The notes beneath the pieces were generated by a model that worked only from the letters and a program-made list of their open reading frames with translations, did not search any database and was not told the origin of the DNA. From positions 131,269 to 195,268 of the forward strand of contig CAYYLC010000001.1 in NCBI GenBank assembly GCA_964472415.1: a stretch of 64,000 nt of DNA. The letters are read 5' to 3'. Source of the stretch: an uncultured Gammaproteobacteria bacterium (GTDB lineage: Bacteria; Patescibacteriota; Microgenomatia; Levybacterales; GWA1-39-11). Of the stretch, positions 17,365-18,156 are shown piece after piece. Both the position numbers and the translations under genes were made by a program. Position 1 is the first letter of the stretch; each line of letters begins with the position of its first letter.

Positions 17365-18156
17365 TTAAATTCTTAGAATAACGACTGCAATGCCGATTCC
17401 CGAGACAACGATGACTACTGTAATGATAACATTTAAGGCGATGCCAAATCCAATTCTTTTAATAGCTAGTGGATTTCTTCCAAGGGCATCCACACCTCGT
17501 GCGGCAATTCTCCCAAAAGTAAAAAAGCCAATGATGAATGAGAGAACAATAACTATTCCTGCAACAACATACTTAAAGACTGTTAAGGGCTCTTCGGAAA
17601 GTGCTGCAGCTGAAAGATTGGAGATATCAGAGAGCTTTGACTGTACTGTTATTTTAGGATTTTGGTAACGAATGTTGATAGCTACATTGATCGGTCGAAC
17701 CTCATCTTTGTTTGAGCTTGAGAAATCTTCGGTAGCATTACCGATAATATATCCTGACTTGCTTGCCCTCATTCCGACTCCTCGTATTGAGGATGTTGTG
17801 ATAGGGTCGCCTTCTTGAATGTCTCCATTTTCAAGCGATACATTTACATATGCGTTACCGGTTGATACAACAGGGAATCTACCACCCTCTTCACCGATAT
17901 GGATAAGTATGGCGGGATTTTCAGCCACTACTCCTACCATTGCAGGATCGTAAGGTGCGCTACTAAGCATAAAACCGCCAGTTCCTTTCGAGGAGATAAT
18001 ATTTCCAGTTCGTATATCATTTCCATCGATAAGTATTCGATTTGCGATTCCATAAGATACTGCTGCATAGGCATGGGTGGCAAAGACTAGGAAGAGTAAG
18101 CCTACCAGTGAGAAACTGAGGAGTGTATGTGAGAGACGCATTTTTAGCTGAGACAT
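17365..18156 (-). CDS. Secreted/membrane protein in the atpE position: signal peptide, about 180-aa extracytoplasmic domain, and a C-terminal subunit-c-like two-helix hairpin lacking the conserved carboxylate
   Basis: 263 aa; [31 protein letters not shown] signal; C-terminus ..[63 protein letters not shown] resembles the c-subunit helix1-ARQP-loop-helix2 but helix 2 has no Glu/Asp. Confidence 0.5.

Follow-up and report, generated by a model that had tools for sequence, protein, structure and literature searches.

The stretch of DNA analysed here, referred to as the window, comprises 64,000 nucleotides of contig CAYYLC010000001.1 (positions 131,269 to 195,268; assembly GCA_964472415.1) and carries on its minus strand an F-type ATPase operon in which the atpE slot, immediately upstream of atpF, is occupied by a gene for a 263-residue exported protein with a C-terminal hairpin that resembles subunit c and has no ion-binding carboxylate. 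The slot had been noticed in an earlier inspection of the letters (hereafter the sequence-only reading), and the open reading frame (ORF) listing confirmed it: the ORF at 17365..18156 ends 1 nt short of the atpF-like gene, here called b-like, which is followed by atpH, atpA, atpG, atpD and atpC. An identical protein sequence is on record on three public contigs. The gene and the parts of its product are as follows.

17365..18156, minus strand: c-like fusion gene in the atpE slot, 263 aa plus stop codon (ORF listing)
18064..18156, minus strand: signal peptide, residues 1-31 (n-region, h-region and AxA motif read from the sequence)
17647..18063, minus strand: exported beta domain (N-domain), residues 32-170, with a phage decoration-protein / phi29 gp12 C-terminal-like fold
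17590..17646, minus strand: linker with a short helix, residues 171-189, then a conserved E-E-P190 entering the membrane (AlphaFold2 model)
17479..17589, minus strand: hairpin helix 1, residues 190-226 (gapless hhalign alignment to helix 1 of subunit c)
17470..17478, minus strand: cytoplasmic loop R227-N228-P229, counterpart of the R-Q/N-P loop of subunit c
17368..17469, minus strand: hairpin helix 2, residues 230-263, with V247 (nt 17416-17418) at the canonical carboxylate position
17431-17433, minus strand: conserved polar N242 of helix 2, at position P+13 (counted from the loop proline, P229)

The signal peptide claimed by the sequence-only reading is present and has a Sec layout, with a basic n-region containing K5 and R7, a hydrophobic core and a cleavage site after A29-Y-A31, ahead of A32, that fits the AxA rule. 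A single-chain AlphaFold2 model built from 87 homologues (mean predicted local distance difference test, pLDDT, 92) has an N-terminal helix, a beta domain at residues 35-165, a helix at 176-188 and hairpin helices at 190-227 and 229-262. The extracytoplasmic domain had been put at about 180 aa; its folded part proved smaller, only about 135-140 aa (residues ~32-170), and is followed by the linker helix, where pLDDT drops to 66-79. P190, at the entry into the membrane, is near-invariant (254/260 hairpins). Both hairpin helices are modelled at pLDDT 93-98, one on either side of R227-N228-P229, which bears out the two-helix hairpin with a GRNP loop described earlier and reproduces the two transmembrane (TM) helices and short polar R-N-P loop by which subunit c is recognised. 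Helix 1 is conserved at Y196, A199, S206, G210, F211, F214, G215, G221, E/D223 and A224; the GxxxG previously ascribed to it does not occur in strict form, and S206xxxG210 and G210xxxxG215 are found instead. Helix 2 contains no Glu or Asp, as had been stated, and V247 (P229+18) aligns without gaps with the canonical carboxylate.

Judged by sequence comparison, the similarity of the hairpin to F-type subunit c is weak but specific and goes beyond chance. A Pfam scan of the 263-aa protein returned no family at E<=1, and the NCBIfam model NF005521 (F0F1 subunit C) matched residues 180-247 at E=0.0058 with 16.6 bits against a 122-bit cut-off, leaving the protein short of the curated family threshold for subunit c (PF00137 / AtpE, NCBIfam). 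A profile made from 35 diverse hairpins (alignment A2, mean column identity 66%) and run against 177,635 distinct PDB sequences had only F-type c subunits among its top six matches (E 0.0046-0.31), with Acetobacterium woodii c2 first (E=0.0046), Chloroflexus c second (E=0.044) and Spirulina and chloroplast c next. The three printed alignments are in register, the two best being ungapped and the third interrupted by a single six-residue gap within helix 1 but unbroken between loop and C-terminus, and in these alignments the canonical Glu pairs with the aliphatic residue at P229+18. The likeness to the Pfam family ATP-synt_C on which the sequence-only reading had staked its idea was found in 15 of the 35 family hairpins (best E=1.1e-3), although under Pfam's own threshold.

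Nine canonical c sequences served as the reference set for hhalign and for a canonical-c hidden Markov model (HMM). The hhalign comparison extended over 68 ungapped columns (P=4e-4, probability 34%). The HMM was run on 86 loci and the window, which together contain 5,344 ORFs of 45 aa or longer; there were 57 matches with E<=10, and 44 of these, including the 20 best, belong to the c-like family. Structural comparison with Foldseek matched Chloroflexus c at 25% identity with a target TM-score of 0.89; among the 50 matches listed, every non-phage one was an F-type c, save one weak match to the lambda portal vertex, and the predicted hairpin overlays c subunits at 1.2-2.3 Å. G253 is invariant and is the counterpart of the conserved Gly six residues past the carboxylate position in spinach and Spirulina c. 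The GxGxGxG packing motif of subunit c is absent from helix 1, where the aligned segment contains the conserved F211 and F214. We consider it very probable that the hairpin is a genuine, though divergent, homologue of F-type c.

A first homology search found 170 homologues, nearly all of 250-290 aa; those with a named source came from Levybacteria, WWE3 and 'Patescibacteria group', and four were labelled at source as subunit c or as COG0636-type. Searching 1.84 billion representative proteins (a library clustered at 50% identity) with the hairpin profile gave 647 matches at E<=1e-3, 433 of them at E<=1e-10. By these profile scores the c-like family is small and sharply bounded, the bulk of canonical c falling short of significance. 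Matches of 73-140 aa were considered as true short forms of the family and rejected as fragments, arising from internal Met starts in the N-domain or from cuts at contig ends. Long variants of 396-538 aa also exist, in which a cytoplasmic helix-turn-helix module and a TM anchor take the place of the signal peptide and the topology is kept.

Loss of the carboxylate is a property of the whole family. At P+18, the canonical carboxylate position, 261 distinct hairpins have I (95), V (86), L (57) or another uncharged residue (23), and D or E in no case. Acidic residues occur in the membrane helices of just 4 of the 261, three times in helix 2 (twice at the cytoplasmic border, once in the outer third) and once in helix 1, and a carboxylate transplanted to helix 1 was rejected on the strength of that single occurrence. 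P+13 is N in 238 hairpins, H in 19 and S in 4, and P+17 is T or S in 204 of the 261 (T246 here). The R, N and P of the loop are each invariant (260/260 distinct hairpins), and the flanking G226, L230 and A231 nearly so. Per-position entropy places the conserved face of helix 2 at residues 235, 238/239, 242, 246, 249, 253, 257 and 260; position 247 lies outside this face and varies freely among aliphatics, like a lipid-facing residue.

Mean column conservation is 0.86 in the loop, 0.62-0.66 in the hairpin helices, 0.54 in the N-domain and, lowest of all, 0.25 in the signal peptide. One would not expect this of a passive anchor, since the ectodomain it would be anchoring is less conserved than the hairpin and its loop. 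This bears on the proposal that the gene encodes an unrelated surface protein with a generic two-helix anchor, part of a system of giant surface proteins, whose resemblance to c is convergent and whose gene is merely co-located or co-transcribed with the atp operon. Such a protein would account for the missing Pfam match and the marginal profile E-values, for an N-domain common to neighbouring giant surface proteins and for the solitary position of the gene in two loci, L005 and L025. It would not account for six best PDB matches that are all c and all in register (R-N/Q-P loop, acid at P229-6, Gly after the carboxylate position), for a hairpin conserved above its ectodomain, or for a gene that adjoins atpF in 70 of 76 loci and in another, L029, has only gamma and epsilon alongside, and we regard the proposal as very unlikely. 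The sequence-only reading had left the choice between a non-translocating c-like rotor component and an unrelated membrane anchor; sequence, superposition, conservation and slot favour the c-like alternative and disfavour the anchor, and non-translocation is something we infer from the missing carboxylate together with a missing subunit a.

Searches of the window, and of ±10 kb around the gene in 80 related loci, recovered no canonical atpE and no canonical atpB, and the proteins encoded at the window edges, out to about 3 kb past its ends, included no atp genes; the canonical atpB-atpE pair whose discovery would have spoken against the sequence-only reading was thus missing from all of these regions. 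The canonical-c HMM recovered no short carboxylate-bearing c from the 5,344 ORFs of the 86 loci and the window, and the earlier statement that the operon contains no atpE of 70-90 aa therefore holds. In the same sequences, subunit a was sought by phmmer with E. coli AtpB and by the signature regular expression R-x3-N-x3-G-E/H, and neither gave a match. Multi-TM upstream ORFs of related loci were rejected as candidates for subunit a, having been identified as prepilin peptidase (PilD), EamA and MFS transporters, as were the polytopic proteins of the window, which are of glycosyltransferase, GT87, YfhO and PMT types. The lack of atpB, a point absent from the sequence-only reading, extends from the operon to the entire window and to all loci examined. 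For a supposed genome-wide absence of subunit a there is indirect support from the literature, in the account of a complete WWE3 genome (PMC3812714).

The remaining genes of the operon encode a peripheral stalk and a complete F1.

16677..17363, minus strand: b-like peripheral-stalk subunit, 228 aa (position and architecture)
16217..16729, minus strand: atpH, delta/OSCP (Pfam OSCP E=3e-9; TIGR01145 E=2e-10)
14748..16220, minus strand: atpA, alpha, 490 aa (Pfam ATP-synt_ab and ATP-synt_ab_C, precomputed on the identical protein)
13837..14760, minus strand: atpG, gamma, 307 aa (Pfam ATP-synt, gamma family)
12040..13830, minus strand: atpD, beta, 596 aa (phmmer against PDB F1 beta, E=1.8e-124)
11625..12056, minus strand: atpC, epsilon, 143 aa (Pfam ATP-synt_DE_N E=9e-15)

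The b-like protein has a single N-terminal TM helix followed by a long charged coiled-coil helix; its best PDB match is ATP synthase subunit b, a weak one (E=0.059), and a Pfam scan matched no b family. In the beta subunit the P-loop GGAGVGKT, the catalytic segment GVGERSREG, the Walker B segment and sELSaED (the DELSEED counterpart) all align with solved F1 beta, and from these motifs the F1 looks catalytically competent. As listed, the atpH ORF has a TTG start and shares its first 53 nt (16677-16729, minus strand) with the end of the b-like gene; its true start probably lies further downstream, because the delta subunits of relatives are 154-155 aa long. The beta subunit ends in a tail of about 140 aa (residues ~455-596, nt ~12040-12468) that is acidic and of low complexity, rich in Glu, Asp and Lys; in the close relatives L004 and L006 the beta subunits are of ordinary length, 458 aa.

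Family members were found at 315 loci when a single genome of each GTDB species was scanned, and the carriers with names are Roizman-, Levy-, Davies-, Woese- and Shapirobacteria, WWE3 and Microgenomates. Context was surveyed in the best 80 of the 315 loci by tblastn with the atp proteins of the window, and 76 of these had at least 1.5 kb of downstream sequence. In 70 of the 76, as in the window, the c-like gene stands immediately upstream of atpF, with space for b and delta (median 1.2 kb) and then alpha, gamma, beta and epsilon. In three others (L069, L074, L085) it adjoins alpha at a distance of 3-16 nt with no b or delta between; the alpha subunit of L069 (10016-14578) has 429 aa. In one (L029, 689-2675) it is followed by gamma and epsilon only, the three rotor parts standing together, and then by unrelated genes. 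Two bins contain two atp operons with a c-like gene in each, L007/L008 (CAYVAJ01) and L032/L077 (CAYQEE01), the c-like genes having 70% versus 49% identity to the window gene, and L049 has two convergent c-like genes 4 kb apart, at 1890-2714 (+) and 6491-7276 (-). Such duplicates could reflect paralogy, mixed (contaminated) bins or misassembly. Many of the species-representative carriers are titled 'uncultured Gammaproteobacteria bacterium', 'Alphaproteobacteria bacterium' or 'Saccharibacteria'; the proteobacterial titles look mislabelled because of the gene content.

The exported domain has no Pfam family and matches phrog_6427 at E=0.0068. Among structures, its best Foldseek matches are the decorator proteins of Borrelia phage BB1 (E ~1e-5), which places it with the phage decoration and phi29 gp12 C-terminal-like domains by fold. 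Such phage domains are of the beta-tulip type and usually trimeric. The gene upstream of the c-like gene contains a copy of the same domain.

18164..23053, minus strand: giant TM-anchored surface protein, 1629 aa (ORF listing; junction sequence)
18911..19276, minus strand: decoration-like beta domain copy in the giant, residues 1260-1381 (N-domain HMM E=6e-21)

The giant has an N-terminal TM anchor, and its gene ends 7 nt ahead of the c-like ATG; a scan of this junction for promoters and terminators found nothing above the shuffled expectation, and the two genes are probably co-transcribed. The domain copy in the giant is 33% identical to the c-like N-domain by BLASTP (E=2e-10), and its PHROG matches are phrog_6427 (E=2.9e-12) and phrog_673 (E=1.2e-7). 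The N-domain HMM also matches giants flanking the operon in ten other loci. Homologues of the giant are enriched near the c-like gene, occupying 22/72 gene positions at -1 (31%) and 11/43 at -2 (26%), against about 0-7% elsewhere, except for 4/28 (14%) at -3. Related giants range from 500 to more than 3000 aa and are often transcribed divergently from the operon (loci L007, L042, L078, L031, L052, L015, L009, L008, L039, L079, L018). The helix-turn-helix module of the long c-like variants (P0204, P0220, P0227, P0239, P0254) is MerR/HTH_17-like, with the motif '...SQ[DE]YLRFLIFKKKL..K.GRNW...', and a similar module heads giant surface proteins near family members, namely the neighbour in L005 (Pfam MerR/HTH_17) and the one in L069 (read from its sequence).

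An intact F1, an invariant loop, a conserved slot and the rotor-only cluster of L029 together indicate that this F1 has the protein as its c-type partner in the membrane. Ion flow by the known route needs the carboxylate of c and the arginine and half-channels of subunit a. Because the carboxylate is missing family-wide and no subunit a is encoded with the operon, coupling to H+ or Na+ by the known mechanism is not expected. The reading we prefer, and hold with somewhat more confidence than doubt, is that the protein replaces subunit c in an F-type ATPase that has no subunit a, translocates no ions and bears an extracellular crown.

In such an enzyme the signal peptide would export the decoration-like beta domain of about 140 aa, helix 1 would cross the membrane from outside to inside and helix 2 would return, leaving the C-terminus outside. 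The invariant G-R-N-P-L-A loop would then be cytoplasmic, and the gamma/epsilon foot of the F1 encoded by the same operon could dock onto it; the loop of canonical c has this orientation and touches gamma and epsilon. Copies of the protein would oligomerise, most likely into a ring, and serve as the membrane partner of an alpha3-beta3-gamma-epsilon head held by the b/delta stalk. N242 may be what brings helices together in the oligomer, by analogy with the known behaviour of Asn residues embedded in membranes. The complex would most likely hydrolyse ATP instead of making it, and the ring would act as a non-translocating rotor or anchor whose outer face carries a crown of beta domains. This crown may interact with the giant fibre proteins of the surface that are encoded nearby, some of which share its domain.

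Several observations weigh against this reading. The sequence similarity to subunit c is weak, with no Pfam match, an NCBIfam score far under its cut-off and an hhalign probability of just 34%. A ring is not assured, because bulky Phe residues in helix 1 replace the Gly motif for tight packing. In two of the 76 loci, L005 and the WWE3 locus L025, the c-like gene stands alone, away from atp genes. The enrichment of giants next to the operon is real co-location and not interaction, and giant genes are common in candidate phyla radiation (CPR) genomes. The absence of atpB and atpE applies to ±10 kb around the gene and to the 64-kb window. In known enzymes the peripheral stalk ties alpha3-beta3 to subunit a, and the b/delta stalk is kept in most loci; therefore an a-like stator may exist somewhere.

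The last two points lead to the possibility that the enzyme is a conventional, ion-coupled one, with canonical atpB and atpE elsewhere in the genome, and that the c-like protein is an accessory subunit, such as a component inserted into the c-ring or capping it, an assembly factor or a regulator. A fully canonical F1 fits this, as does a b/delta stalk kept in 70 of 76 loci, whose membrane partner in known enzymes is subunit a; atp operons can be split in other bacteria, the searches covered ±10 kb per genome, and the gene is sometimes found away from atp genes (L005, L025). An accessory subunit would nevertheless have to fill the exact atpE slot in one species after another, where there is no second c gene, and to recur with each operon in the two-operon bins. 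The joint loss of the operon's atpB and of the c carboxylate is also the pattern expected from an abandoned ion path, and in a complete WWE3 genome the only a, b and c candidates reported are non-homologous ones beside the operon (PMC3812714). We judge an accessory role unlikely, though it deserves more weight than the other alternatives considered here.

A third alternative keeps ion transport and moves its site: N242 (His in 19/261), T246 and S206 would form a novel H+ or Na+ site, and a divergent stator would replace subunit a. The conservation at P+13 (N or H in 257/261) and P+17 (T or S in 204/261) is what such a site would call for, a buried TM Asn or His is usually functional, and the b/delta stalk is retained. 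Asn is not protonatable, however, N242 lies on the conserved packing face and not at the canonical outward-facing site, no conserved multi-TM stator candidate is encoded near the operon, and no rotary ATPase is known to run without a membrane carboxylate. The ProAD resource calls c/K subunits lacking the carboxylate 'non-catalytic' (PMC11738941). We think a relocated ion site highly improbable.

A bolder variant of the preferred reading, in which the operon encodes a new type of rotary or mechanical device spanning the membrane, has F1 burning ATP to turn or strain the carboxylate-less c-ring, with the crown coupled to the giant fibres that share its domain, so that hydrolysis powers the movement, extension, attachment or remodelling of surface appendages. 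It would be a CPR analogue of the F1-derived gliding motor of Mycoplasma, made from the Fo rotor itself, and, if true, would explain why CPR bacteria without respiration retain an 'ATP synthase'. We offer this variant as speculation and consider it quite unlikely.

Among known systems the protein is closest to F-type subunit c, the nearest solved structures being A. woodii c2 (4BEM), Chloroflexus aurantiacus c (9ITJ/9ITT) and Spirulina c (2WIE). It shares with F-type c the two-helix hairpin, the cytoplasmic R-N/Q-P loop, an acid six positions ahead of the loop Pro, the Gly after the carboxylate position, a gene directly upstream of atpF and termini that are both predicted to lie outside. It differs in having no membrane Glu or Asp, no GxGxGxG and no atpB in the operon, and in remaining under the Pfam and NCBIfam thresholds; it is 263 rather than 70-90 aa long because of the signal peptide and the exported beta domain of about 140 aa. 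Hairpins of c type without a carboxylate are kept in other rotary ATPases, in A. woodii c1 (a double hairpin with one carboxylate), V-type c'' and multi-hairpin K, but there other hairpins or ring subunits keep the carboxylate, subunit a/I is present and no domain is exported. In the c-like operon, unlike these partly inactivated proteolipids, the only c-type gene lacks the carboxylate and subunit a is missing too. The 'non-catalytic' flag that ProAD gives to c/K subunits is a generic note (PMC11738941).

The operon also falls outside the N-ATPases and the Mollicute F1-like ATPases. N-ATPases have the order atpDCQRBEFAG, with their own atpB and atpE, atpQ and atpR, and no delta. Here c-like is followed by b, delta, alpha, gamma, beta and epsilon; delta is present and atpB, atpQ and atpR are missing, which sets the operon apart from that group. 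The F1-like X0 ATPases of Mollicutes (type 2 and type 3 clusters, the Mycoplasma mobile G1-ATPase gliding motor among them) are extra paralogues beside a canonical F1Fo, and their clusters have divergent alpha and beta and no homologues of delta, b or c. The likeness to them lies in F1-type alpha, beta and gamma that are detached from ion translocation and tied to surface functions with very large surface proteins, which for the operon described here is the proposed state. The difference lies in a beta subunit that matches F1 beta at E=1.8e-124 versus 1e-91 for G1 beta (PDB 9io5), and in the retention of delta, b and a c homologue.

For the exported part, the comparison is with phage decoration, cement and stabilisation proteins and with the phi29 gp12 autochaperone (3GQH, 8PKH, 8QSY, 9OCB, 5WK1), to which the N-domain has 11-19% identity. 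Phage domains of the decoration type are typically trimeric; the N-domain, unlike them, is cellular and tethered to a membrane hairpin. A second comparison is with ATP6AP1/Ac45, ATP6AP2 and yeast Voa1, separate single-pass proteins within the c-ring of the ion-translocating V-ATPase. These likewise place an extracytoplasmic or luminal domain atop a proteolipid ring, but they are not fused to the proteolipid.

The subunit has been noted once before, in passing, and was not characterised. Kantor et al. (2013) reported that in the complete WWE3 genome the a, b and c candidates of the operon 'lack significant homology' (PMC3812714), and mentioned a 'putative c subunit' in passing, with nothing on the carboxylate, the exported domain or the missing subunit a. 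This is the sole mention that our literature search found, and the search turned up no paper describing the fusion, the carboxylate loss or the exported domain. That almost all CPR/Patescibacteria have retained an F-type ATP synthase, with no respiratory chain to power it, is regarded as an open puzzle (PMC11665869). In the Microgenomates/WWE3-type carriers, which are ultra-small CPR bacteria and comprise at least 315 species-level genomes, the assumptions of synthesis driven by the proton motive force and of a reversed proton pump may both be wrong. If the absence of the ion path were confirmed genome-wide, 'F-type ATPase present' would be a misleading entry in metabolic reconstructions of these lineages, and the enzyme would be the first known F-type ATPase to lack the entire ion path while keeping F1, stalk and a c homologue, its exported crown pointing to a new output of rotary ATPases at the surface of episymbiotic bacteria.

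Two further gene groups of the window lie on either side of the operon. About 700 nt downstream of atpC, at 3154-10945 on the minus strand, is a complete type I restriction-modification system with HsdR (1026 aa), HsdS (452 aa), HsdM (512 aa) and two unassigned ORFs (327 and 278 aa). On the other side, a glycosylation island of about 35 kb (~27270-63000, mostly plus strand) encodes more than 12 polytopic proteins with 9-12 TM helices (GT87-, YfhO-, PMT/PMT_2- and PTPS-related types), with GT2 and GT4 glycosyltransferases, an epimerase and a Polysacc_synt flippase encoded in between. This content suggests that the cell surface, or proteins on it, are heavily glycosylated.

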